A DNA stretch of 64,000 nucleotides from Octopus vulgaris (Eukaryota), in NCBI GenBank assembly GCA_951406725.2, contig OX597822.1, positions 88,970,001 to 89,034,000 of the forward strand. Reading direction: 5' to 3'. A program made the position numbers and the translations under genes. This document shows positions 5,373-58,521 of this stretch, one piece after another. Within the stretch, counting starts at the first letter, position 1, and every line of letters starts with the position of its first letter. The notes below the pieces were generated by a model. It had not been told where the DNA came from and searched no databases. It saw nothing but the letters and a program-made list of their open reading frames with translations.

Positions 5373-5873
5373 GGCAAAGATTATGGCACTATTCACCAAC
5401 TTTACACAAAGTGACTGCCTAGAAGAGTTGCAGGTGATTCCGAAGTAGTCTGGAGGCCGTGGTTAAATCAATGGCGATTTTATCGAATAAATTTACTCTT
5501 TAGTATTTGAAGATATTTTTGTGAAATTTTTGTAAATACATCTGTTAGAATGAGATGTCAATGTTATTTTTATTTTTGTGTAATTTAGGCAACAATATAT
5601 TCACTGCACCCTTTATATAAATATCTTTAACATAATCGAAGTTTGTAGATGACTGAGTCATTGTGAGACTGCCTGTTATGTATTGCCCTAATTAAATATT
5701 TGATATGCTGGTTTAATCCTTAAATCTTAAAAATGTTTTAGCCCAAAGGCCGCGGCCATGCTGGGGCACCACCGTTTCATTAATTTCTATATATTTTTCC
5801 ATTTTTTCTTTTCTTTTCAGAATGCTTGATCTTTGATTTCAGCTACTTATAAAAGTACATCAAACAGCACACC

Positions 5874-5990
5874 ATGGGGACATTGTTCCGCAGCGAAGAA
5901 ATGACATTATGTCAATTATTTTTGCAGTCTGAAGCAGCATATGCTTGTGTATCAGAACTTGGAGAGTTAGGATTAGTGCAATTCAGAGAT
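5874..5990 (+). CDS. ATP6V0A1: V-type proton ATPase V0 subunit a, coding exon 1 (exon begins 5821 after ttttcag; ATG 5874)
   Basis: [39 protein letters not shown] then GTAAGT donor; 117 nt, phase 0; classic N-terminus of V0 subunit a. Confidence 0.97.
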
Positions 5991-18972: not shown

Positions 18973-19051
18973 CTAAACCCTGATGTGAATGCCTTTCAGC
19001 GCAAATTTGTAAATGAAGTTCGCAGATGTGAAGAGATGGAAAGGAAACTTC
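18973..19051 (+). CDS. ATP6V0A1: V0 subunit a, coding exon 2
   Basis: tttttcag|[26 protein letters not shown]+c|gtaagt; 79 nt. Confidence 0.96.
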
Positions 19052-24542: not shown

Positions 24543-24640
24543 GTTTTCTCGAGAAAGAGATTAAAAAAGATGCAATTCCCATGCTTGATACAGGGGACAA
24601 TCCTGATGCACCAGTCCCCAGAGAGATGATTGATTTAGAG
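24543..24640 (+). CDS. ATP6V0A1: V0 subunit a, coding exon 3
   Basis: tcttcag|(R)FLEKEIKKDAIPMLDTGDNPDAPVPREMIDLE|gtaagt; 98 nt, restores phase 0. Confidence 0.96.
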
Positions 24641-28519: not shown

Positions 28520-28648
28520 GCAACTTTTGAGAAGCTTGAAAATGAAATGAAAGAAATTAATGCCAATGCTGAGGCTTTGAAGCGGAATTTTCTGGAATTG
28601 ACAGAACTTAGACATATACTACGCAAAACACAGAATTTTTTCGAAGAG
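28520..28648 (+). CDS. ATP6V0A1: V0 subunit a, coding exon 4
   Basis: Long pyrimidine tract...ctccag|ATFEKLENEMKEINANAEALKRNFLELTELRHILRKTQNFFEE|gtgatt; 129 nt, phase 0. Confidence 0.96.
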
Positions 28649-39868: not shown

Positions 39869-40740
39869 AGCTGAAGCTTTTTGAATCATGACTGTTAGTT
39901 TTACATTTATGATTCTTCAAACAAATGAAGACTTTTTCTCATTTACAAATTCACGCACACACACACACACCTCTAGTCTCATCCTAGTCTAGATTTGATA
40001 TCTGTCTACTTTAAGTTCACTTCATGCTAGTGTTGAGTTTACCTGAGATTCTCCTATCAATAAAAAATGGTAAAAAGTGATGTTCATATTGATTCTGTTA
40101 TCTGTATCTCCTCTCATACAAAAACTAGTCCTGTGCTGTTTCATATTATTTTTAAGGTTACATACAGAGTTACTTTTCATTCAGAAAGTCATGATGAAAA
40201 GAATTGAGGTATCATTATAATTTATAAAAAATAAAAATAGTTTCCTGCTTATTGGTTGAGGAAAGAAGTAAAGACAGAGCCAACTGTTAGGTATTTTCTA
40301 ACATTATTTTTTAAACTGTTTTCTCTGTTATAAGCTAAGAATAGTTGTCTAATAAGGCCAAAAGGTAAGTGACTACAATAGAAATGACACCCTAAAAAAA
40401 AATCACATCAAATCATGGTCACATAATTTGATCTATATATTTTACAATATCCATTGAAAAAAGAGTTTGTTTTGCAATTAATTAAACTTGTTTGAAATAT
40501 TTCTGTAAAGACAAATGTATCTATACTGGCTATTGATATGACATTGAAAGAAGTTTTGAAAGCTACTCAAATCTCTTTTACTGTTCCTCATCTTCTCCCC
40601 ACCTTTATATTACTCCTCATGTAGGGATTTTATACATATAGTCTTTCACTAACAGTAATTTCCTTACTAATCACTCGTGTAAAACCAAGGGAATGGACAT
40701 CTATCCACACATGTTAAAGTTAAGATATCAATTTTACTAG

Positions 40741-40850
40741 GCTGAATCCAATCACAATCTGAATTTGCATGATTCTGGCAATAATGAGGAGTCAACTATG
40801 CTACTGATGGATGAAACTTTTTATCAAGTTGGCCTGGCATTAAAATTAGG
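40741..40850 (+). CDS. ATP6V0A1: V0 subunit a, alternative coding exon 5A
   Basis: attttactag|AESNHNLNLHDSGNNEESTMLLMDETFYQVGLALKL+gg|gtgaga; 110 nt, phase 0 to 2, ending in LG as expected before the FVAG exon. Confidence 0.85.
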
Positions 40851-42440
40851 GTGAGAAATGGAACATTTTATTACATTTTGAATATTTGCCTTATTGTTTT
40901 ATATATCAACGTTAACATCATTACTTTGATACATTTATTAAATCCTATGTAGCACATGCTTTTATGCAGAGTACCCGGGTTGTACTTGAACCATATCAAA
41001 TATTTATTTCTATTTGCCATTTCCCTGGATTTTAGGGCAGGTTAGATTTTGCAGTGATCAGAGAGCTGGACTAGATTCTTTTATGATACTTTGATGTCTT
41101 AGATTTTTGTGTTGAAAGTGTACCATAGATGACTTTTCATCGTCCTTGGAGTTAATAAGATTAGTTTATATAAAATGTATCGGGAATGTGTAAATTGATT
41201 ATAATAGATTATAATAATTATTAAGGGTATATTAACTTAAAATTGTTATAGAGCCTTGTTAAAAAACCACAGAAAAGTCATTTCTCTATTCCATGTGATG
41301 CCTCATTGACAGTTACCATTCACAATACCTGTATGTCTTTGGCTATCCTCCCCATCTCTCTCTCTCTTGCAAGAAACTATCTTTATTACTATCTCATCTT
41401 GCAGCTCATACTGTTTTCTATTCAATCTCCTTACCAATAACCAACATCTGATATCATTGTCTCTCTTTTCTATCACTCTTTCCTCTACCATCCTCTCACT
41501 CTGTTTATTCCATTACATTCAATCTTTCTTTTTGACTATCTTGGTTGCCACTCTCTTTTATTCACATTCTCAGTCACTTTTACCTTGAAAAAATGAAGAC
41601 ATCATAAAGTAAGGAAAACTTCTTAGTCTTGCAGGAGACAAGGTGACTTCTAGAGTTTGTACCACAAAATGTATCCTGTATTCTCTGTAAAGTGGATGGG
41701 GAACAAAGATAGTTTAGAGTCAAGAGGACTCTCTAGCCTTGTAAAGTGCATGACTACCTCTCTAGTGTTGGTGCCGTGATAAAATACACCCAGTACACTT
41801 TGTAAAGTGATTGGTAATAAAAAAGATATTCAGTTATAGAAACTATGCCAAAAATGGAATATGTGAGCAAGATGTACTCCTCCAACTTATCTATAAGGCA
41901 GTAATTCCGAATAAAAACTAACTTGGACCATGATGATTTATTCAATGTTTGCTAGCATGGAAAGTGAATATTAGAAGAGGATGATGATAATGATGATGAG
42001 GATGATGTTCCTGTTTTTGATGTAAACATTAATATTTAAAATCATCTCATAAACATATTCTGTAAAATTGCTGTATAGATTGTCAAACCTTGGATATGGC
42101 AAAGAGATCACATAACTGTAGAACATTAGATAATATGTCTTAAGGTATTTGGTTATGTTCTTTAATGTTCAGAGTTCAAATGTTTCCCGAGTTTATGTTG
42201 CCTCTCAACCTTCCAAAGTTGATAAAATATATACCAGTTGATTAAAACTGGGATCAGTAGAATCAATTATATATTAGAAGCCTTGCTTCAGCATAACCAC
42301 AGTCCAGTGACCAAAACTAGTGACAGAATAACAAAATATGCAAATAGTGGACTGAATGTTTTCTGTTTTTGTTTTAAGTGAGGGTCAGTGAAGGGTGTAT
42401 GCATATGTTACATAATTATTTTGGCTGCTGCTCAATTAGA

Positions 42441-42650
42441 TTAACCTTTTGTTACCTTATTTTTGTTGACATACAATTACTTGTTTCAGTTAATTTTGAA
42501 AACATTGAAAAATTGAGTAAAATAATTGTTGGGAATATAAAGTGACATGAAATTTTGAAGAAAAGTTTTAGTTAAGATCACTTTAAAACATGGAGGTTGT
42601 ACCATAAAACTAGAGAACAGTTTCAGGTAGGGTGGTATGAAAAGGTTTAA
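42441..42650. mobile_element. TTAA-flanked MITE, family B
   Basis: ttaaccttttgttacc...ggtatgaaaaggtttaa. Confidence 0.7.
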
Positions 42651-43969
42651 TAACATTTTGATTTAGATTAGGTCTCAGCTCTCAAGAGGCAATTGTGATT
42701 TCTTATAAGTAGTTTAGTTTCCAACTGGATTGGATTTAGAGATTTTTTGTGAGAAGTAGAAGTCTGTTTGAAAAAACTGTTGCTCTTCGCTGTCATTTGA
42801 AAATAGTATCTTATATTAACAATAGCAGTGTTGATTTTTCGTCTTCTCATCTCACAACACTTATCTTTACATTTCATTTTCATCATTTTGTTTTCTCTTC
42901 ATGAGTAACATGTACAAAAATATTGTTTTAATTAGTATCTTATGAAGACCAATATTTCTTGTGTATAACTGTTTTGTTCATTTCCAAATCAGCCTCATAT
43001 TTCTTATAAAGGAAGATGGAATAGGCAAAAATATTGCAGCACCAGACTAAATACTTTACATATTCTAGAATATTTGTTTTTTCTGAATGCAAATACATCT
43101 GGATAGAACCATTACTTATGATATATTGAAGTTGGTTCAATTAATTATACAACCTTCTTTATAAAGAAATTTGACCTAGAGCTTTGTTAAGAAATCAATA
43201 TTTCAAATATAATTGTAAGAACTTGCAACTCAGCTCAGCTGAATTGCTTGCTCTAAGCAGTTCAATCTCATCCCATCTTTCTTTCATTTAGAAACAATAA
43301 AATTATACAAAGATAATTCTGAAAATTCTAGTTATTCTAAATTTATATTTTAAAATGTTAAAATACTTTACTAAGGAATATATGTTTAACATCTCTTTCT
43401 TCTCTTTGATTAACATCTAGTGCTGCAATTAAGAATTTTTGTCTTTAAATTAAGTAATTTATTATTTATAATTTTTTTTAACTAATTAAAAAGCGGGTGT
43501 TTTTTTTATTTTTTTAAAGTTTAGTGAAGGTGCATGACCTAGTGGTTAAGGTGTTGCACTTACAATTGTAAGGTTTTGATTTTGATTCCTGGACCAGGTA
43601 GTGCATTGTGTTCTTAAGTGAGACACTTCATTGAGTTCCAACAATAGTTGGGAAATTAACTTTGCATTGTATTGCATCCCATTCAAGGGGGAGCATTATA
43701 ATCTCAATTTATATACCATGGAAATCAGGTTAAGCTTTGATCTTATGAGTCACAGGGGTCTGAATATTATATCATAAAAGAAAGTCTAATGGTGGTTGCT
43801 TTTAATAGAACCCTATGGAGGAAGTGTCTGCACCACAAGCCTTCCAGGAATAGTGAGCAGAAAAGATGGATGCATGGATGGATGAAAAAAACAAAAAACA
43901 TGATTTAAGTAATTAGTATCAGTTACTCTTTACATAAAATAAATTTTAAATTTATATCTGGAAGTTATT

Positions 43970-44325
43970 TTTCTGTGGCACCAGCATTGGGGCTTCTCTA
44001 TGTGACACTGGTACAGGTGCTTTTTTCATGACACCAAAACAGGTGTCTTTTACATGACACCAGCATCTGTGAGCCTGCAAGACAAAGACCTCAACTGAGA
44101 GAGGGAGTGGGGGACATAGTTGTAAAATACATACCTGTATGGATGGCTACAATTTTACTTAGGTTGACATGTCTTCTCAAGCACAGCAAATTGCCAGAAG
44201 CCTTGGTTTTTGTCATCTCCTCAGTGAGGCCCAACATTTGAAGCTCCTTTCTCACCACTTTGTCCCATGTCTTCCTGGGTATATCTCTTCCACAGGCTCC
44301 CTCCACAATTAGAGATCAGCCCTTT
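43970..44325 (-). mobile_element. RTE LINE 3' fragment
   Basis: VEGACGRDIPRKTWDKVVRKELQMLGLTEEMT, followed by a UTR remnant. Confidence 0.75.
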
Positions 44326-45175
44326 ATGTACTGAGCCTGTATTTACTATTGTGTTTTCCATTTGATGCATTCAGTTTACACTAAGTTCTAGTTCAGTATC
44401 AAGTCTCTCGTCATTATTTCTTGTTTGTCTTATTGTATTACATTTTTAACAATCATAATTTTTAAAATCCTTTAACTCTGAAAATTTGAAGAGATACAAC
44501 AGCAGCTGCTATTTTTAGTTTTAGCATCAACTTGGTACATTGTTACACTGAAGACATCATGTGAATAATTATATTGGTGAATGGTATAACATATTTAGAT
44601 ATAAATGAGTGTTCTACTTGGAAATTTGTGTCTTTTGAAACCACATTTGTCGCAGTTATTGAGTTTCTATGATAGTCTATCCTGTCCTCCAGTCCCTTTT
44701 AATATACTGTCAAATGTGCTATTTTATGATGTAATGCAAAAGTTATGTATAGATTGCTTAAGCATTGATGGTGGTTGTGGTGTTGGTGGCTGTAGTAGTA
44801 TTAGCAGCACTATTGTAGAGCATTAGTTGTAGAATTTATTTGTTGTTTGATGTTGTGTTTTGTCTATTATTGTTGTGAATATATAATATTGTATCTTTGA
44901 TATTTATTCATGTGCTTCTTGCTTTTTTATTTTTTTGGTCATTTGAAGTTATTTAAATAGATAAATCTTGATGCATATTATTTAAAAAAAGACAGGATGT
45001 TGTCTATTTTTAACCCAACAAAAAGTATATATTTTTGTTTTGTTTTTCTGAAGGGTATTATAATCTTATTGAATATTGTCTATTATATTTTATATATGAT
45101 TTTAAAAGTTTTTTTTTTAATGATTCTTAATATTTTCACATCCATGTATGAATTCTGCTTATTTGTTCCTTTCAG

Positions 45176-45183
45176 CAAGACAT
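45176..45183 (+). other. Candidate 8-nt micro-exon (QD+at)
   Basis: ttctgcttatttgttcctttcag|caagacat|gtaatt. Confidence 0.3.
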
Positions 45184-45357
45184 GTAATTAGACTAGGTAG
45201 TTTAAAATATTTTCTAATTGGTCACATTGGAGAAGTCATTCAAGTAAATACAAGATTCTCTTTATTGACTTATTCGACTGGTTGAAAAAGTTGATGAAGT
45301 AAAACTTGTCATGGAAGGCCCAATCAATTTTAAATGTTTAATACACACACACACACA

Positions 45358-45393
<36 letters not shown>

Positions 45394-45396
45394 ACC

Positions 45397-45559
45397 AGAG
45401 TGGGTGCATGTTAAGTAGCTTGCATACCAACCACATAGTATCGGCTTAAGTCCCACTGTATAGCACGTTGGGCAAGTGTCTTCTACTGTAGCCTCAAGCC
45501 AACTAAAGCCTTGTGAGTGGATTTGGTAGACGGAAACTGAAAGAAACCCATTGTGTATG

Positions 45560-45601
<42 letters not shown>

Positions 45602-45627
45602 CGCGGGTGCATATATATATATATGTG

Positions 45628-45659
<32 letters not shown>

Positions 45660-45918
45660 CGCACACATATATGCACACACACATGCACATACATATATGT
45701 GTGTGTGCGTGTGTCAGTGTATCTGTGCTTGTCCCCCCCCCGTCACTTGACAACCAAAGTTGGTGTATTTACATCCCCATAAATTAGCAGTTCGGAAGAA
45801 GACACCAATCAAATAAGTTCTAGGCTGACAAAGAGTAAGTCTTGGGATCGATTTGTTTGACTAAAGCCAGTGCTCCAGCATGGCCACAGTCAAGATGATT
45901 GAAACAAATACAAGAAAA
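45397..45918 (+). mobile_element. Near full-length tRNA-derived SINE with internal (TA)/(TG) microsatellite
   Basis: Head gagtgggtgcatgttaagtagcttgcataccaaccac..., body ttgggcaagtgtcttctac, tail gtgctccagcatggccacagtc. Confidence 0.85.
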
Positions 45919-45922
45919 TAAT

Positions 45923-46068
45923 ATCATCGTTTAATGTCTATTTTCCATGCTAGCATGGGTTGGACGGTTCGACCAGGGTCTGGGAAGCCAGGTGGCTGCA
46001 CCAGGCTCCAGTCTGATCTGGCAGTTTCTACAGCTGGATCCTAACGCCAACCACTCCATGAGTGTAGT
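45923..46068 (-). mobile_element. RTE-family 3' tail
   Basis: tcatcgtttaatgtctattttccatgctagcatgggttggacggtt. Confidence 0.75.
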
Positions 46069-46219
46069 ATATATATACACACACACACACATTTGTACAT
46101 ACATATATATACACACACACACATATGTACATACATATATACACACATATGTACATATATAATATATACACACATGTATGGGGGAAATATGTACTATATA
46201 TAATGTGTACTATATATAA

Positions 46220-46806
46220 TGTGGGGGGAAACAAATATTCGTACATGTCAAAATTATTTATTTATCAAATTTCTAATGAACATAAATTGGATATACCAAT
46301 ACTATATTTGCATATACATACATAAACTAAGAATATGCAAAAGAAACTAATAAATTATAGTTACTAAGGAATTTATATACAATTATAAATATTTAGGGGT
46401 GAAAAAAGTATTTGTACAGAATATAAATAACTGATAATTCTTATTTAATACTTTGTAGCATAACCATTATTCAGTTCCATTTCAACCAATCTCTTGTAGT
46501 TTTTAATCAATGACTCGCATGTTTCTTAAGGAATTTATTCCCATTCTTCTTGACAAATTTTCTTCAAATCTGCAATGCACGTTGGGGCTCTTGAATGAAT
46601 TTTAATTTTCAAATAATGCCACAAATTTTCAATGGGGTTCAAGTCAGGTGACTGGCTTGGTCATTCTAGTAGTTTTATATTGTGATCGACAATCCATTTT
46701 TTGGTAGACTTTGCCATGTGCTTAGAGTCGTTATCCTGTTGTAAAACCCACTCTTCACAAAGCTGGAGCTTTTCTACAGAGTCCCATAAAATCCATTTGT
46801 AGGGAT
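46220..46806 (-). mobile_element. Tc1 transposon 3' fragment
   Basis: [47 protein letters not shown]; probable TIR near gtggggggaaacaaatattcgtaca. Confidence 0.8.
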
Positions 46807-46808
46807 AT

Positions 46809-46932
46809 CTGAAGAAGGAAATTTACGCCGAAATATCATATCAGACTATAGATGATTAAATTACAACAATCGTTATAGTCCATTCTGTGTTTTATAGTGC
46901 ATTGTTGTGTCATTCAAAACATTTTATTCTTC
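46809..46932 (+). ncRNA. Penelope-type terminal-repeat fragment starting at a hammerhead core
   Basis: CTGAAGA agg-aaatttacg-cc GAAA ta-tca-ta TC agac; 5' strand of stem I missing. Confidence 0.5.
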
Positions 46933-47030
46933 ATATATATATATATATATACTATATGTAGTATATAATATATATATAATATAATTATGTTTATAATTTT
47001 AGAATATTTGTACTATATATATATATTTAG

Positions 47031-47432
47031 TCTTTTACTCTTTTACTTGTTTCAGTCATTTGACTGCAGCCATGCTGGAGCACTGCCTTTAGTCAGGCAA
47101 ATCGACCCTGGGACTTATTGTTAGTAAACCTAGTACTTATTCTATCAGTCTCTTTTGCTAAACTGCTAAGTTACGGAGAGATAAACACACCAGCATCGGT
47201 TGTCAAGCAATAATGGGGGGACAAACACAGACATACAAACACACATACACATATATATATACATATATATGATAGGCTTCATTCAGTATCCGTCTGCCAA
47301 ATCCACTCACAAGGCTTTGGTTGGCTCAAGGCTATAGTAGGAGACACTTGCTCAGGATGGCATGTAGTGGGACTGAACCTGGAACCATGTGGTTGGTAAG
47401 CAAGCTACTTACCACACAGCCACTCCTGTGCC
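47031..47432 (-). mobile_element. Full-length tRNA-derived SINE
   Basis: rc: ggcacaggagtggctgtgtggtaagtagcttgcttaccaaccacatggttccaggttcagtcccac...gactgaaacaagtaaaagagtaaaaga. Confidence 0.9.
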
Positions 47433-47559
47433 TATATAATATGAATACTATATATTATAAATACTATATATATATATAAATAAAATATGATTTCTACATA
47501 TAATATATTATATATACTATATATATAATATATATATTATATATGTATATTATACAGAT

Positions 47560-47560
47560 G

Positions 47561-47596
<36 letters not shown>

Positions 47597-47686
47597 TATA
47601 CAGATATGTTATATATATATATATATATACATTATACAGATATGTTATATATATATATATATATATATATACATTATACAGATATG

Positions 47687-47724
<38 letters not shown>

Positions 47725-47830
47725 TATACAGATATGTTATATATATACTATATATATATATACATTATACAGATATGTTATATATATACTATATATATAT
47801 ATACATTATACAGATATGTTATATATATAC
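47560..47830. repeat. Minisatellite (ta)n-cattatacagatatgt
   Basis: Direct reading. Confidence 0.85.
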
Positions 47831-48089
47831 TATATATATATAATATATATATAACACACACATATATATATATGCTATATATATTAATACATATAATATA
47901 TATATACTATATATATTACATACATGTAATGTATATATGATATATTATATATATATATACACATACTATATATGTATATAATACATCATCATCATCATCG
48001 TTTAACGTCCATTTTCCATGCTAGCATGGGTTGGACGGTTCAACAGGGGCCTGGCGCAGCCTTTGTACAGATATATAATATAATATATG

Positions 48090-48136
<47 letters not shown>

Positions 48137-48250
48137 ACATATATATATAATATACATGTCATGTATATATATATATATATACACAACATATATATATTAT
48201 ATACATGTCATGTATATATATATATATATATATATTTATTATATAGAAGG

Positions 48251-48301
48251 AGCTTCTACAGGACTAGAACTGTTTCATTCAAGAGAAATCTTCAGGAAGC
48301 T
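48251..48301 (-). ncRNA. Type I hammerhead ribozyme (antisense copy)
   Basis: Reverse complement of 50072-50122. Confidence 0.75.
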
Positions 48302-48548
48302 AGTTAACAAGAATTGTATTGGCATTTATACATTTAGGCAGGTTTATAGGGGTGGTGGTGGGGGACTTTTTGGGGGTAGGCATAGCGCAAAAAAATCATA
48401 CTTGGGGGAGTGGTCAAGGAGTCAGTGGTAAATTAGATAGAAGAATAAATAAAAGAATAAAAAAAGAATAAAATACAAAAATATATAGAAGAATAGAGTT
48501 TTAGGTAAATAAGGAAATTCTCAACACACACACATATACATACACACC

Positions 48549-48582
<34 letters not shown>

Positions 48583-48598
48583 TATACATACATATATC

Positions 48599-48642
<44 letters not shown>

Positions 48643-48821
48643 CACATATACATGCATATACACACACACGACCACACATACACATACACATAAAAAAAAA
48701 ATATATACATACACACGCATACACATACACACATACACACACATATATCCACATACACACATGCACACACAACACACAAGTCCCTATATACTCATATATA
48801 CATATACACATATATGTATGT

Positions 48822-48881
<60 letters not shown>

Positions 48882-49598
48882 GTGTACCTATTCATACACA
48901 TATATGTACGTATACACACACACACATATACACATACATACACACACATACATACATATGTGTACCTATTCATACCTACACATACACACATATATACATA
49001 CAATTACAAACCCATTCCCTAATTTTAATTTTATTATCTTCATTTATTACTTTTGTTATCTTTGACCGCTGGTCACAAACATCTTGGCTAGTCCCTTTTA
49101 TCTTTCTACTTGAGCACAAGCACTCACTCACGCACGCACACTCATTAGCACGCACACACACTCTCATTCGTACACTCATACACATACATGCACGCACGCG
49201 TTATATTCATACATACATACATCTACATACATACACGTATATACACATACGTACGCGTACCTACAGATTCATGTCTACAATCTTAGAAGACTAGTCTATA
49301 CATATACACCAAATATATATACACACATACATATACACCTACATACAAATACATACATACATATATATACACACATATATATACATACACACATACACAT
49401 ACACATATATATACATATATATATACACATATATACATATATATACATATATATATATACACACATATCCACATACATACATACATACACCCATACATAC
49501 ATACATATATACACACATACACACAACCACACGTATACATATACATACATATACGCGCATGCATACACATACAAATACATACACATACACATATACAT

Positions 49599-49649
<51 letters not shown>

Positions 49650-49734
49650 CACATACATACACATACATATACATATATACACACACACACATACATACAC
49701 ATATACACATACACGCACATACACATATACATGC

Positions 49735-49781
<47 letters not shown>

Positions 49782-50071
49782 TATACATACATATACATAC
49801 ACACATACACATACACACACACACATGTGTATGTATATGTGTGTGTGTTGAGAATTTCCTTATTTACCTAAAACTCTATTCTTCTATATATTTTTGTATT
49901 TTATTCTTTTTTTTATTCTTTTATTTATTCTTCTATCTAATTTACCACTGACTCCTTGACCACTCCCCCAAGTATGATTTTTTTGCGCTATGCCTACCCC
50001 CAAAAAGTCCCCCACCACCACCCCTATAAACCTGCCTAAATGTATAAATGCCAATACAATTCTTGTTAACT

Positions 50072-50122
50072 AGCTTCCTGAAGATTTCTCTTGAATGAAA
50101 CAGTTCTAGTCCTGTAGAAGCT
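50072..50122 (+). ncRNA. Type I hammerhead ribozyme (sense to host gene)
   Basis: agcttc CTGAAGA t-ttc-tctt-gaa-t GAA acag-ttctagtc-ctgt A gaagct: 6-bp stem I, 3-bp stem II under a U.U pair, 4-bp stem III, GUA cleavage triplet. Confidence 0.78.
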
Positions 50123-50205
50123 CCTTCTATATAATAAATTAATTTTACTCTGCTATGTATTGAGTACCTTATTTACTGTGGTTAACCCCGAATCAACCCG
50201 GGACC

Positions 50206-50241
<36 letters not shown>

Positions 50242-50261
50242 ACATATATTATATACATGTC

Positions 50262-50296
<35 letters not shown>

Positions 50297-50331
50297 ACAT
50301 ATATATATTATATACATGTCATGTATATACA

Positions 50332-50372
<41 letters not shown>

Positions 50373-50689
50373 GCCAGAAGAAAATGGAGGGGATCAAGAG
50401 GTGGTATTCATCAATTTTTAGACATTATATTATGTGTATTTGTTTTAAAAGCCATTATAACAATATACATACATGTATAACACATTATGCTTTACACATA
50501 TAATATATAAAAATATAAAAATACCAGTAATTATTAAAATTTGTAATGTAAAGCATAGGAAGTATATATACGTTATAGGTATATAATGTATATATATACC
50601 AATGTACAGAGATTGGCAGAAAGTGCAGGGGATGCAGAAAATAACGTTGTTAGAAGCTTCCTGACTCTTCCTTTCCATGCTTGTTATCT

Positions 50690-51600
50690 TCTATGCATCC
50701 ATTTAGTCCTGATCATTATGGTGCTACCTACTAATGTGTCTTGAGGTGTGTATTTTTCACCTGGGAATGTTTTGGCATCTATGAGCAGCCATCTTTCCTG
50801 TTTCCTGGCTTTGATGTAGTCAATTTGACTAGTGTGTCGTGCAGACCTTTAGGTGAAAAGGTGAGTGGCAGGTTTCCTGAAGTTATTATTACAAACCATG
50901 AGATCATTTGCATTGCAGAACTCCAGCAGCCTGTTTTCCCCATCATTACGGGACCCAAAACCACAGCCACCATGTACGCCATGGAAAACCTCTGCATATA
51001 GTGCAACATGCCCATTGATGTTGCCAGCCACAAAGCGAAGGTCACTGTCATTTGTCAACAAGGTAGTCATAAAATCGGTCTTTCTGTTCATCAGGTAGCC
51101 CTTGCTGAGGGGCATAAGCGAAGATAATGGTTGCTAATCCATGTTGCAGCCTTAATCTAAGCTTCAGTATTCTATCATGGACTCTTGAATATCTCGATTA
51201 CCTTATCCACCCATTTCTCTGCAAGAAGTATACCCACATCTCCAACCTCATCAGTGTTCCCTACCCAGAAAATCTTATACCTATGTTCTTTGCTGGTGGG
51301 GAACCTAACAGAACTTCCTCTCCACATTTCTTCTTGGATGCAGCACAAATCTACATGTCTCCGTTCAACAATCTTACCGGACCTACCTTCCAATGTGCCA
51401 ACATTGTGTGCGAACTCTGAGGGTATGGAAGGTGTGGACCCATGAGGATCTGTGATGGGTGGGAGAGCAGCATCATGTATCTGAAAAGAAAGCTCGCATT
51501 TGGCAGAACTTATAAATATACACTAGCCTTCAAACTGCATACACTACACCATCATTTCATGTGCTACATAATCACTACATTGCATAGGAGATGGGGAGCA
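50690..51600 (-). mobile_element. RTE LINE 5'/endonuclease fragment
   Basis: RVRTQCWH...VDLCCIQE.MWRG...YKIFWVGN..GVGILLAEKW; FVAGNINGHV...HGGCGFGSRNDGENRLLEFC. Confidence 0.85.
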
Positions 51601-52886
51601 TTTAACCTTTGGAGGTTTTCAGGGGAAAGACATCTGATAGAGGTCGAAGGATAAAGACTTCCGGTACAGATGTTGGTGGTGGGAAGGGCAGGCACAACGC
51701 AAAACAGCAAACACTCTGGCTGCCAGTGTGGAAGAATAGTAATAATAATAATAATGATAATAATGAGATAGAATTGGGTGTTTGCATTCTTAACTAGAGT
51801 TATAACCAACAGTTTTTGGTGAGCCAGTGTGTGACAAAATTAGGTAAATGAATGAATAAATATTAATAATAAATGTGCGTGAAAGGGAGTGAGAAGGGTG
51901 AAAGAGAGAGAGAGAGAGTTGGATTGAGTGTAGGGATCTTAAGTTTTTTCTCTAAACATATGGTACAGAAGGCAAAACTTCTGTTTACATAGATAGATAA
52001 TGAAATGAAATAATAAAGTAATTGCAATTTGCGCTGTAAAAGAGGTTTTTGATGTGTGTGCTAGCTTGGAAAACCAAGTTGCTTATCTGAATATCTTCTG
52101 ATTTCTACTCCATGTAGCAAGATATTAAAATATGAGGTAGGGGAATCTGAATGAGCTAGTATATATATAGGGTGGGGTGGGGGGAGAAGAGGTGAGGTGT
52201 TGGGAGAAGCAAGTGGTTAACAGAACTGCGAGAGAGTGGGGAGAGAGAGGAAGAGAGAGACCAGGGTTAGGCTGGTCGAAGACATGACATGAGGAGATGG
52301 AATTTTCAGGATTTAGGGTAACAATTGAACGATAATGCAAAATATATTGCTTGATGTTATAAAAATTCTGTCAGTCCATCTTATATTTTCATAATTTTTT
52401 CCCAAATCAAAATATTAAATTTAGTCTCACAATAACTTGAGCTGGAAAGCAGAAATGATGTTTGTTTTTTTTAAATATAAATTAATTTATGCATGTATTT
52501 AGATTCGCTATGACTACTGTTTTATGAATAGCTGTTTTAAAAAAATTCTTCAAAAAATGGTTTTAAGTGGAACTGATTTTATGTTTAGATTATTATCTAA
52601 AGTTTCCCCTAGAAAAAAAAAAAAGCAATTCCAAAAATCAAAAGCAAGCATTAGTAAATGAAAGTGGAGCTGTGTCTTATTTTCCTTATTCTCTTTGGTT
52701 ATTATCAATAGTGCAATAGCAAAAGATGTTGTACTTGTACATTATTTCTATTGCCTTTCTTACCACTTGCTTGTTGTTTAAACATTAGGGCTTATTCTAT
52801 TATCAAAGACTATATATAGGAATAATTCTTAACATAAGAAATTAATGAAAGCAAAAAGAAAGATCATGATTTAATTGGTAAGACAC

Positions 52887-52949
<63 letters not shown>

Positions 52950-53441
52950 CACACACACACACTATTTGACATTATAAGTAGTCTGGTAAGACTTAAATTT
53001 ATATCTACTATTAGACATCATAAACAGTAATGTGTGACAAAAAAGAGAAACAAGCCCACTGATGTGACTCAAACCATATCGCTTGCTAGGAAATCATTGT
53101 AACATGTTTTGTGTGTGTGTATGTATGTGTGTGTATTTAGTGTCATGTGGCTTGATCCAATGTTTATATGATCAATATTATTTAACATGGTTACCGGTTC
53201 AATGAAAGATGCTTAGTTATTCGTTTGAGTAAGGTTTCTGCTGATAAAGGACTCCTTGCAATTATCACATCAGTTGGGTAAATACTTTACTTTGGAACTT
53301 CATTAACAGATTTAAATAATTATTTTAGCAGACTTGTTATAACCTTATTACTGATTGCATCTACAAAGCAGTGACTCAGTCACCTGGCAAGTGAAAGGTA
53401 CAAAGTTTTAGTCCTGTCAGTAGGTCTGTTTCTCTTTTCAG

Positions 53442-53453
53442 GCCGAACTTAGT
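53442..53453 (+). other. Candidate micro-exon (12 nt, AELS; or 10 nt using the GT at 53452)
   Basis: ctgtttctcttttcag|gccgaactta|gt|gtataa. Confidence 0.25.
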
Positions 53454-56202
53454 GTATAATGTCTAATAAAATTTATTTAGAAAGATTATTTGTTACCTGT
53501 GAATGTTCTAGCTGTTGGTGAATGACACCAAAGTTTGGGAGACAAAGAAAATAAGCTACCAAGTAATTTCATTTCATTTATAGGGAAAAGACATGAACAT
53601 TACATGATTTAATTATGTTGAATTTTTTGTACTCACCTTAGAGATATTTAATGTTTCCTTAGAGCATGTACTCAGTGAAACTTTTTTTGTCATTTGCTTG
53701 CTATATAGTGAACTCTACTTTGTTGTAAGTAATTGGGTCTGGTTCATCCCTATCTTGTAATAGAGGTCCTGTTAAAGTGGACTTCACTTTGTTATAAACG
53801 ATTGGGTCAGAGCTTTAGTTTGAGGATATCTTTCACTCCTCACTGGTCATGGAGGTCCTGTAGCCAATCATGACCTTCATACTCTTCCTTCTCTCATTAA
53901 GCTTTTAAAGTACAGGTTTCAAGAAACATATGAGAAATCCACTATATATTTATAGTTCATTTTCATATTAACTTGGACTTCATTTTCAATCATTCAGTCC
54001 TTTTTTTTCAAGCCTTGTTTGAAGAGAACTCCATAAATGTCAAGTGTGACTAAATCCAGCTGTTATCTAAAAGCAGTGTTCTTCATTAATTAAATATGTA
54101 AGCAATTCCAGTATTTGATAAGTAAGAAAATAAGTTACCGGTGAAGGAGGGACTATGCTCAAACCATTTTCAGGCTCTTTCAAATATGTAAGATTCATGC
54201 AATTTATGTAAGTGAATGTAAGTGATATATATGTTCAAATGGAGTATATAAAGATAAGAAAGTAAAGAATTGAGTATAATCTACTGAATAAAACATTTAT
54301 ATTGATGTTTCAAATGCTATATGCTTTTATGGGCAGTAAAACAAAAGTGAAAGTGTGGATAAGTCCTAAGAATTCTTAGTTTGAACAACGTTATTATTAA
54401 TACTTGCAACCAATTATATCTGTTACTTGTTGCAGAATTATTAAGTAAGCATTTACATTATACATATAATATAAAATTTAATCTTTTACCTTAGACTTAC
54501 TCCTTATTATTAAATAAGCTGAAGAAAATCTATAAATAATTTTCCTTTTGTATAGTTTAAGAATCATAAGATTGTACCAAAACTATGTCTTTTTAATTTT
54601 ACAGACATAATAATTTTCAATATCTACATTTTCTATCTGTCTATCAGTGTGTGTGTGTGTGTGTGTATATAATATTTTGAAATACTGACTGAAGAGGGTA
54701 GTATTATGTAATGGTTATTGTACATTAACAACTCTAAATGTGCATATTAAATACATTCAGAATATCAACTATAGTTTTGTGATTATTCTGATGTTTACAT
54801 AACACTCTTGACATTCTTCAGATAATATATACATACATGCATACATATATTGGTGGGTGAATATATATCTACATTTATGTGTGTATGTTTCCATAAATAA
54901 ATATTTGTAGAGACTCAATCGCCAACTCACTCTGCCTTTTCTATTACTACTACAATGGCCTCTGCTGCTCAGAGCCAGCTACTTGCATATCATTCACTCC
55001 AAACCAGTTTAACATACCCATCTCCTCTTGTCAGATATGCTATGTCCTTCATCCAAGCCCTACACTAACTATTACAGCTAAGTTTTCTTCCCTAGAACAT
55101 AATATATTTTAAATCTTTTTCCAATCCACATTCTGATGCAGTCATTGACTTACAGACAATATGCAGTTTTGAAGGCAACATAAGTGTAGCCTGTTCTTCT
55201 TGACTACAAATCTTAAAATAGATATTAAAAAAATATAAATATTAAGATATGAAGTTAATAGCCTCCAAAATTATAATCATGGTAACAAAAATGCACACAT
55301 TTAAACATTCAATCAATAAAATTATGGTAAACAAATTATTTTATACATATTTTTATGTCTTCTAATAACATTAACAGAAGCTATTTTCTGGTGACATTAT
55401 ATTCTAACTTCATTTTCCTTCTCTCGTTTTTTGTGGAACTTCCATTGCTAAATTGGTTGATTATACTAAACTATGCAAATACTTAAAATTACTGAATAAA
55501 TCACTCAATTTCTAATATTTGTTAACTGCAATTGTGTTCTAACCACTGAAAAAATATAACTGCTTCATATTAACTTCTTTATATTCTTACAGAGGTTTCA
55601 GTTTTAGTAGTAGTGTTACCATCTTAGTAGGAACTATTTCCTCTATAATTACTATCAATATCAAGTAATCAACATTGATTATGAAAGCTGCAGCTGGTTA
55701 AGTAAATTGATACATGCCTGTTGATGAAAGGTCATTGGCTCATGACATTTGTTGTACTACATGATGTCTTTACATGACTAAATCTACCTAACTATTAATA
55801 AGTATCAAAAGAGTACAATTCACTACTATAAGTAATTGATGTATTTTATATTTGACAAGAATTCTGATAGATTGCAACGTTGAGCCCACTCAGTAATCCT
55901 CAGTTAAGGAAAACCATGATGATTAAGAGTCACACAACAATGTGATTTCATCACAGGTGACAATCTTGCTTGAAGATGATGTGTATTAGGAGCAACTACA
56001 CATGCTTTGTTCCTACTGAAACAATTAAACCTTGATACTAATGATAATAATTATCAATAGAATGTATGCTGAAAAACCTAAGAATGGCAAAGTATAATAA
56101 AGTATTGATCAATCAACTGAGAAGACAACATTATTCTGTCATTGGTTTTATGCTGGATTCTTGACTAAGAGTTTTAATTTCAACCACTCAGTCAACCTAG
56201 CT

Positions 56203-56426
56203 TTACCCCTTTAGCATTCAGATTACTGTGCCAAATGTAATACTTTTTTATTCACATTATTTTGAATTCATGATGCATTACTTCGTAGCTTCAAGATTTC
56301 AATGATGTAATTATTTATTTTTACAATGACATTGTAGTGTTAGAGAGGCTGTGTCTGGCCAGACTGAACATAAAACAGGTGGGATATTTGGCTTAGATAT
56401 GGCTAGTTTAAATGCTAAAGGGTTAA
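56203..56426. mobile_element. piggyBac-type MITE, family A
   Basis: ttacccctttagcatt...aatgctaaagggttaa; homologous to 14032-14261. Confidence 0.75.
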
Positions 56427-57110
56427 GCAGGTGTTTGTAACATTAGCTTGGAATATTTCAATGTCATAAGCAATGTCATAACACTGTAAAATTAATATCT
56501 CATTAATCTGTAGTGCTGAATTTGAGTTCTCCTTGTGTTTTTGTTTTCTCATAGAAATGCTAAAACAGAATCATCTTTTTATTTCTCATCAACATTCTCA
56601 TGTGGGCATGAAAATGAAGGACTGACATATGTTCTTTGTAAAATTGTTAACCAACTTTGCAGAAAATGTTGTCATGTTATGTTGCTGACAAAGCAAATCA
56701 TTATTTTCTGAGATGCACTTTCCTAGCAAATGAGTTGATCTGAGACTAAGTGCTGAGACTAAAGCAATTATAGTGTGGATGACATATTTTAGCCATTCAA
56801 AAACACACAAAAACTGTTAACCTCACTTAAATATTATTTGGTGTCAAAACTTTCATCCCACCAACTGCAACCTGGTCACAGACTAAGTTCCACTGCAGAT
56901 CATTAATCCAGTACAACTTGCTGCATGGTCAGATCATTAGTGACTAAACTGGTGACCCCACTAAGCCTACTTAGGGAGGAGAGTGATTAGATACCCAGTA
57001 ATCATTAATTAGATTTAGTATTTTAGAATTGAACATTGGCTCATTTATTGAACCTGTTTGTGCTGCAGGAAGATAAAATTGCTTTAAATATTAGTAATAT
57101 ATTTATTTGT

Positions 57111-57142
<32 letters not shown>

Positions 57143-57785
57143 TTCAAACATCTTCAATTATAGATTTACTTTTACATTATTACTTACAAAAAAAAGGTAT
57201 TGTACATTGTTAGAATACTGCAACTTTTCTATATAATGTATTTAATGCAGTTTTATCTCTAATAAAATGTCCTTCTCAATAGAAAAGAATTTTTGAAATT
57301 TCATTTAACTTTTCTTTTTTCAGATTTCATTTCTTGTATATATTTTTATGATTGACATATTTTTGCCTTTCATTTATTTATTTGAATATATTGTTGTTGT
57401 TGCTGGAGGTAGAATGAATCAATTTTTTTGTTAATTATGTTTAAAAACTTGTGTATTAAGAAGAATTCTTTGAACATCATAAGTTTATAGCTTTTTCTGA
57501 TTTGTATACTTTTGTATTTATCCATCTCATTTTTCTCTTCTTTTTTCCTCCCTCTCTTCAGCCCATAAATCCTCATTTTAATTCTCATTTTGAGGATTCT
57601 TCTCTCCTGTTGTGTGTAATTTTGTGTAGCTTTACAAACAAAAAAAGGAAAGAAAAAAAAAAAGCATGTTTCAGACTGTAAATCTAATCATTATGTATGG
57701 ACTAAATGTGTGTTTATCAACCAGTTAACATCTTAAATGATTATGAAGAAAATTTATGTCAATTTCTTCATTTGCTTAATACTAG

Positions 57786-57871
57786 TCTGACTCGTTGATT
57801 GATGATGCTGACCAAGCATTAGTGGGTGACCATCTTGCAAAGTATCAGGAGCGCCAGCAGTCTCCTCTGGG
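57786..57871 (+). CDS. ATP6V0A1: V0 subunit a, alternative coding exon 5B
   Basis: tttcttcatttgcttaatactag|SDSLIDDADQALVGDHLAKYQERQQSPL+gg|gtatgt; 86 nt, open, phase 0 to 2, ending in LG; GC-richer than flanks. Confidence 0.72.
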
Positions 57872-58521
57872 GTATGTCACCTTCATCTGTCTTTAACAAT
57901 TGTTTGTCTCAATGTCAAGACAGGTTTGCACATTCTTCACTATGCTTATATCGTGTTTATTTCTGAGTGTTTTTGTAAATTTTTTTGTTATTTGCAATTT
58001 TAAAATGACCAAATAAGATGATACACTTCATCAGTAAGTTGGCATTACTTGATAAATTGACTTTATTTAGAAGAAAACAAGCCATTTCTCTTACTATCTA
58101 TTGAAATGTTTATGTTCAGATTTGTTTTCTGTCAACTTAATGCTATAAGTCTCTAATGTGCATGAAGAAGCAAAGTTTTTTTTTGTATATAGAATTAAAA
58201 AAAAAAAACAATGAAATAATTGTTTTGAGTATTTCTCTTAGTTTTAAATTGTTGAATAAGATATGCAGTAATACGTTAATACAGCTTCTGGTAATTTCAT
58301 GTCACTATTTAGTGTGTTCTGTGTGCAGTTTTATGTGTAAAAAGAAATTTGTCACTTACTTGCATTAAAAATTTGTTACTTAAGCAGTGTTTACAATTGG
58401 GGAAGGAAAAACTATGCACATGCAAAGTTTTTTAAGATTAAATTTGAGTAATGGTTACTTGTGTATATGTGTGGTACCTTACAACTCCACTTTGTTATAT
58501 AAATATATATATATATATACA

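Follow-up and report, generated by a model that had tools for sequence, protein, structure and literature searches.

A probable pair of mutually exclusive linker exons in the octopus V-ATPase subunit a1 gene, at the position of exon 4 of the worm gene unc-32

Exon 4 of unc-32, a V0 subunit a gene of Caenorhabditis elegans, is a tissue-specific cluster of mutually exclusive exons (PMC3585155). Its three variants, 4a, 4b and 4c, of 155, 107 and 122 nucleotides (nt), are all of length 3n+2, are non-homologous and are described as partly dependent on nonsense-mediated decay (NMD; PMC4165533). The choice between 4a, 4b and 4c follows intestine, neurons and pharynx, with 4b requiring UNC-75 (PMC3585155 and PMC4165533), and among the tissue-specific mutually exclusive events of worms unc-32 is presented as the strongest (PMC12084633). 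In vertebrates, PMC3812966 and PMC2835735 report four a1 variants that differ in sorting, of which a1-I is sorted to nerve terminals. A comparable arrangement appears in Octopus vulgaris, in a stretch of 64,000 nt of a 2.8-Gb genome (assembly GCA_951406725.2, contig OX597822.1, forward-strand positions 88,970,001 to 89,034,000; hereafter the window) which, judging by its sequence, carries the first coding exons of the gene for V-ATPase subunit a1. Two exons of this gene, A and B, are probably mutually exclusive alternatives, of which a productive mRNA would keep one.

Exon A (40741..40850, 110 nt) and exon B (57786..57871, 86 nt) lie in tandem on the plus strand between two common exons of compatible phase, the layout expected of a mutually exclusive cluster. 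The upstream common exon, exon 4 (28520..28648, plus strand, 129 nt; only coding exons are counted in this numbering), ends FFEE in phase 0 and is 100% identical to the a1 of Octopus sinensis. The downstream one, exon 6 (L001:8891-9017), starts in phase 2 and is found beyond the window, 15 kb past B. The introns measure 12,092 nt between exon 4 and A, 16,935 nt between A and B and 15,019 nt between B and exon 6. Both alternatives are open, 3n+2 in length and run from phase 0 to phase 2 between an AG acceptor and a GT donor (GTGAGA after A, GTATGT after B), with Leu+GG at their ends. Either one alone keeps the frame between exons 4 and 6, inclusion of both leads to a stop at codon 41, within B, and skipping of both leads to a stop at codon 9 of exon 6. 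An earlier note on this DNA, made from its letters alone, had described two open, canonically spliced exons with these lengths, phases and ends, and had held that either alone restores the frame while both or neither shift it; coordinates and sites were confirmed, and the two stops bear out the frame argument. The downstream exon that it expected is present and has the right phase, but reads FLAG and not FVAG. Its remark that neither exon is in the list of open reading frames (ORFs) is true for ORFs of at least 80 amino acids, the open frames around A and B having 37 and 36 amino acids and hence falling below that list. In the five C. elegans isoforms compared, the linkers from FFEE to FVAG have 52, 36 (two isoforms) and 41 (two isoforms) residues, corresponding to 155, 107 and 122 nt. 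Since these are the lengths of 4a, 4b and 4c, the slot between FFEE and F[VL]AG that A and B fill is, at sequence level, the slot of unc-32 exon 4.

Transcripts and protein models provide evidence for the use of single exons. Four of the 24 sequencing runs listed, putatively of RNA and from four studies (three runs of one organism, one of another), were compared with positions 57670-57990, and in each of the four one contig matches exactly 57784-57873. The loose ends of these contigs equal the end of exon 4 upstream and the start of exon 6 downstream, which shows that exon 4 is spliced to B and B to exon 6 without A; the junction 28648 to 57786 and that from B to exon 6, both of which the earlier note had singled out for checking, are thus joined in all four runs. 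Every one of the contigs extends at least 255 nt beyond the 3’ junction of B, and two also pass through the 5’ junction. This suggests that B is the main form in the samples compared, as far as contigs, which drop rare forms, can tell. With regard to A, it is found in four of the five O. sinensis RefSeq isoforms X1-X5, and B in one; at protein level these automated models match both exons exactly, each being used singly, and X1 could be rebuilt from 20 exons (833 residues, one mismatch). The models of O. vulgaris and Argonauta carry B, the X1 model of O. bimaculoides starts inside A, and only seven proteins were recovered as homologs of the B region. Of 19 cephalopod proteins with the linker, 7 have A alone, 11 have B alone and 1 is fused, so that 18/19 have a single linker; the eight among them that are Logan-assembled, from contigs of 3-5 kb, comprise two with A and six with B, none fused. 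A spliced singly is therefore seen in protein models, namely those of O. sinensis in RefSeq and two Logan-assembled proteins of other cephalopods. The mutually exclusive cassette proposed in the earlier note is consistent with all three lines: the frame logic, the contigs with B alone and the single linkers.

Frame logic alone proves little, because exons 4 and 6 are separated by 44.2 kb that hold 788 open, frame-compatible segments of 50-200 nt between AG and GT, among which B and A rank just 13th and 31st by splice-site score. An [LF]+GG end is shared by seven of the 788, among which B and A have the best scores. That the exons are real is confirmed by homology together with RNA. Linker profiles were built from 26 A-type and 7 B-type proteins of non-cephalopod animals, assigned to their type by eye. 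On the A profile octopus A reaches 17.2 bits, a score attained by 0/500 shuffles, and on the B profile it has -0.7; octopus B scores 10.5 bits on the B profile (3/500 shuffles) and has no match to the A profile. The two exons are thus unlike in sequence, neither matching the profile of the other, and A appears to be a diverged member of the vertebrate-a1-like linker type. Each exon is the top match of its own profile when the 788 candidates are scored together with 911 open-frame pieces, and the next-best other locus has at most 1.8 bits (A profile) or at most 4.0 bits (B profile). Exon A has one match in this genome.

The same candidates and pieces yielded no third linker exon in the 44 kb with the A and B profiles, a search that a very diverged exon could escape, and none with six further profiles and five single linkers from arthropods, nematodes and others; the additional variants that the earlier note had suspected downstream did not appear. 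A stray match at 44743-44825 (11.8 bits with one single-sequence model) was rejected, being Gly/Ser-rich and without an LG end, and having partial matches at three other places in the genome. None of 1019 candidates for in-frame microexons before A or B had independent support.

The two exons have diverged unevenly. Octopus A is identical to cuttlefish A at 19/37 residues and to the A of a second cephalopod at 20/37, and those two other A linkers are identical to each other at 31/37; in the same comparison, the flanks of the linker are identical at 139/141 and 216-218/222 residues. On the A profile, octopus A reaches 17 bits, as against 65-69 for those two relatives. Exon B, of which the earlier note had asked whether it might never be spliced or conserved, is spliced in all four runs and identical at 29/29 residues in cuttlefish and Argonauta. 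By sequence comparison, such unevenness could reflect either relaxed constraint on a minor exon or adaptation. Under the former, A might be a decaying relic in octopods, rarely spliced and under little selection, with B effectively constitutive. The divergence of octopus A beside conserved flanks and a conserved B, and its reduced score, would fit this idea, as would the unbroken contigs at the 3’ junction of B in 4/4 runs, where a well-used path from A might cause a break. However, the length of 37 residues, the reading frame and the two splice sites of A are intact, its sequence is unchanged in O. sinensis and, across the 17 residues compared, in O. bimaculoides, and most of the O. sinensis isoforms carry it; a relic appears quite improbable.

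Both alternatives have weak 3’ splice sites. With a crude scoring model derived from 18 sites of the same gene, the acceptors of A (40721..40740, plus strand) and B (57766..57785, plus strand) score 3.1 and 2.4, lower than any of the gene’s 18 other acceptors (3.5-13.6, leave-one-out), and the donors score 4.7 and 7.9, inside the range of the gene’s donors. The final six positions of both acceptors (40735-40740 and 57780-57785) read TACTAG, from which most other acceptors of the gene differ. Steric hindrance and U2/U12 incompatibility are among the mechanisms listed for mutually exclusive exons (PMC3585155), and both are ruled out here because the exons are 16.9 kb apart and have ordinary GT-AG sites. 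The likeliest reading, by analogy with unc-32, would be that one of two weak acceptors is selected under regulation and that NMD removes the errors. Cell-type-dependent splicing factors would set the choice between the two acceptors, and, as exon anatomy and the worm gene suggest, NMD would clear the mRNAs with both exons or neither. B would be the major form in the samples seen and A a more restricted one; on the same analogy, which the earlier note does not draw, the tissue-specific use of A and B that it proposed is likely in octopus.

The swap would exchange a loop of 37 residues for one of 29 in the cytosolic domain. In AlphaFold2 models of both forms, the linker follows a long helix, precedes a well-predicted strand and is itself of low confidence (predicted local distance difference test, pLDDT, below 50) at residues 144-176 with A and 143-167 with B; it is predicted to be a flexible loop. 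The helix before it would be the stalk helix entering the distal lobe, according to the domain layout in PMC10755780. The lipid-binding loop of a1 (Y214-V-H), reported there as well, differs from the linker and lies about 40 residues downstream. Since any of the three worm isoforms rescues an exon-4b mutant (PMC3585155), fine tuning is favoured, and the swap would adjust how the pump is regulated or sorted, proton pumping itself not depending on it. A role of the swap in organelle targeting finds no support here.

Several points speak against this picture of a regulated choice between two distinct loops. The loss of rare forms from contigs means that RNA with both exons or with neither could go unseen, and the evidence that octopus uses exon A comes from RefSeq models and from conservation. 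Moreover, the cuttlefish gene model P0133 joins 26 residues of A in frame to all of B. Were this model correct, the exons would not be strictly exclusive, and an in-frame donor inside A would permit a productive A’+B, the tandem cassette then having three products; in octopus A, a GT in phase 0 that could serve follows nt 87. That internal donor, however, scores -1.6, under all 18 leave-one-out donors (lowest -0.4), a fused linker is present in 0/8 Logan-assembled cephalopod proteins, and several nematode gene models fuse variants of unc-32 exon 4 that are exclusive in C. elegans, an error that predictors evidently make. A third product of this kind is very improbable.

Further points of the same bearing concern the control of splicing. 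Long-range intron pairing of the Dscam type was not seen, the duplexes of 7/7 pairs of flanks (500 nt each) being no stronger than those of 30 random intron pairs. Regulatory motifs of RBFOX/CELF/Nova type, counted by their customary consensus forms, are at background near the exons. One TGCATG is found inside A, at 40766-40771, on conserved L-H-D codons and another 288 nt past B, neither being significant; the one near B is uninformative because the motif occurs in the intron at a background of 0.57 per kb. With regard to the loop, both structure models have low overall confidence (mean pLDDT 54.8 and 63.7), and by analogy with the worm isoforms, which rescue each other, the swap may matter little. 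It could also be that the tissue-linked choice is real and that its point lies in the RNA, as a means of setting the a1 level via NMD or as a by-product of a neural programme, the loops being functionally equivalent. That the A-type linker stands alone among the matches listed for abalones, mussels, scallops and teleosts implies that one exon can suffice. Yet the invariance of B across the cephalopods seen, and the A and B profiles that stay distinct from lophotrochozoans to insects, point to selection on each peptide, and equivalence of the loops is considered unlikely.

In other animals, at least two distinct linkers are annotated in Octopus, Sepia, Liolophura, Lineus, Tubulanus, Lingula, Owenia, Dimorphilus, Ramazzottius, Daphnia and Ctenocephalides, and three in Apis and in C. 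elegans; A- and B-type alternatives are found in annelids, nemerteans, a brachiopod and insects. The first linkers of insects and Daphnia match the A profile at 33-54 bits, and the second linkers of bee and flea match the B profile at 15.8 and 13.6 bits (0/500 shuffles each). Neither profile is matched by the second linker of Daphnia (0.5 bits on B), the second of the chiton or either tardigrade linker. In worms, the 4a class matches the A profile weakly (Steinernema 10.5 bits, 0/500 shuffles; C. elegans 4a 1.2 bits, 38/500) and 4b and 4c match neither, and a one-to-one matching of octopus A and B to 4a, 4b and 4c is unclear from these scores. Only A-type linkers are present among the matches listed for Haliotis (15), Mytilus (15), scallops (12) and teleosts (15/15), which is not proof of a loss of B.

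The A type itself comes in two lengths. In two vertebrate a1 chains (PDB 9bra_a and 6wlw_R) the linker is of A type and either begins with an insert of 7 residues or lacks it, and short and long forms of A are also found in bivalves, abalone, chiton, nemerteans and annelids. The two forms, 7 residues apart, can come from tandem acceptors in one exon (L038:4758/4779-4867, L042:1920/1941-2029). No in-frame acceptor occurs within the first 47 nt of octopus A, which therefore is without the short form, the inner acceptor having been lost.

Genomic loci allow the exon order to be followed. Among 80 metagenome loci, 20 are contiguous across the slot, 41 are without exon 6 and 19 span the slot with a gap. 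Tandem exons, A-like and then B-type and all 3n+2, are present in 5/19 gapped loci (L018; L043, L045 and L046; and L088, the first exon of which was judged by eye). The other gapped loci comprise one that is probably tandem (L087), 12 with one A-like exon and one with none (L076), and the contiguous locus L072 has the B linker of L043 alone. Furthermore, a paralogous subunit-a gene on contig C1 (L008, G000:C1; minus strand) has one linker exon of 95 nt in the same phases, and no candidate for a second was found within its 1.7-kb span; because of these shared phases, the slot would predate the duplication that separated the paralogues. Two further weak matches to the subunit-a family are seen on C21 and C23. 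A tentative and rather doubtful synthesis is that a single A/B switch descends from the protostome ancestor as a tandem of A then B, tripled in nematodes and bees and represented by A alone in several lineages, and that its balance was reversed in octopods, with A half rewritten and B frozen as the main form; A might then provide an octopus-specific, tissue-restricted isoform with new partners.

The remainder of the gene can be described briefly. Coding exon 1, with the ATG at 5874, spans 5874..5990, coding exon 2 spans 18973..19051 and coding exon 3 spans 24543..24640, all on the plus strand, and acceptor-like sites at 5780-5873, ahead of the ATG, suggest that a non-coding exon lies further upstream. 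Beyond the window, a second alternative set lies in the cytosolic loop that precedes the final membrane helices, where a Gln/Pro-rich exon of 207 or 204 nt with tandem acceptors (L004:6146/6149-6352) alternates with one of 123 nt (L005:2997-3119); both are 3n, and they are used singly in the cephalopod proteins seen. Orthology of this set to exons 7a/7b of unc-32 was rejected, since in the alignment 7a/7b falls on residues 625-670, a position that the octopus set immediately follows. The 15-residue insert of O. sinensis X4 has its source at L005:9591-9635, and a different, 20-residue insert of cuttlefish-type proteins has no match in L004-L006. The O. vulgaris model P0126 (1451 amino acids) has a1 fused to a protein of 624 amino acids that is annotated apart in O. 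sinensis (92% identical over 600 residues), probably an annotation merge.

The octopus pair is real, is of a kind already known from the worm, and both of its exons are already in public isoform models. A literature search, with thin coverage of subscription papers, found no paper on the cephalopod cassette or its conservation across phyla, nor any on the linker isoforms of insects or crustaceans, and PMC10313074 has no mention of splicing terms. The significance of the pair is modest: it connects a well-studied splicing model of the worm, exon 4 of unc-32, with the equivalent position in molluscs, annelids, nemerteans, a brachiopod and arthropods. Such breadth suggests that this switch in the regulatory domain of the V-ATPase is very old, and the uneven divergence of A and B in octopus offers a small, testable lead on splicing-based diversification of the pump in animals with few subunit-a genes.

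In comparison with other animals, the statement of the earlier note that this linker is alternatively spliced in vertebrates and insects applies in part. For insects it agrees with database isoforms: the a1 of insects and crustaceans (Vha100-1; Apis, Bombus, Halictus, Ctenocephalides, Daphnia) has alternative linkers in the same slot in RefSeq and UniRef models, and bees, unlike octopus, have a third linker of 18 residues. In vertebrates, the two PDB chains of a1 (gene ATP6V0A1) show the 7-residue in-frame insertion before an A-type linker rather than a mutually exclusive pair, and no B type is present in the 15 teleost proteins listed. The octopus gene resembles unc-32 in being a V0 subunit a gene whose alternative exons, mutually unlike and all 3n+2, occupy the same slot, with frame-shifted products open to NMD. 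Unlike unc-32, it has two exons where the worm has three, with a spacing of 12-17 kb compared to 237-288 nt; the introns that the octopus switch has to bridge are some fifty times as long as those of the worm.

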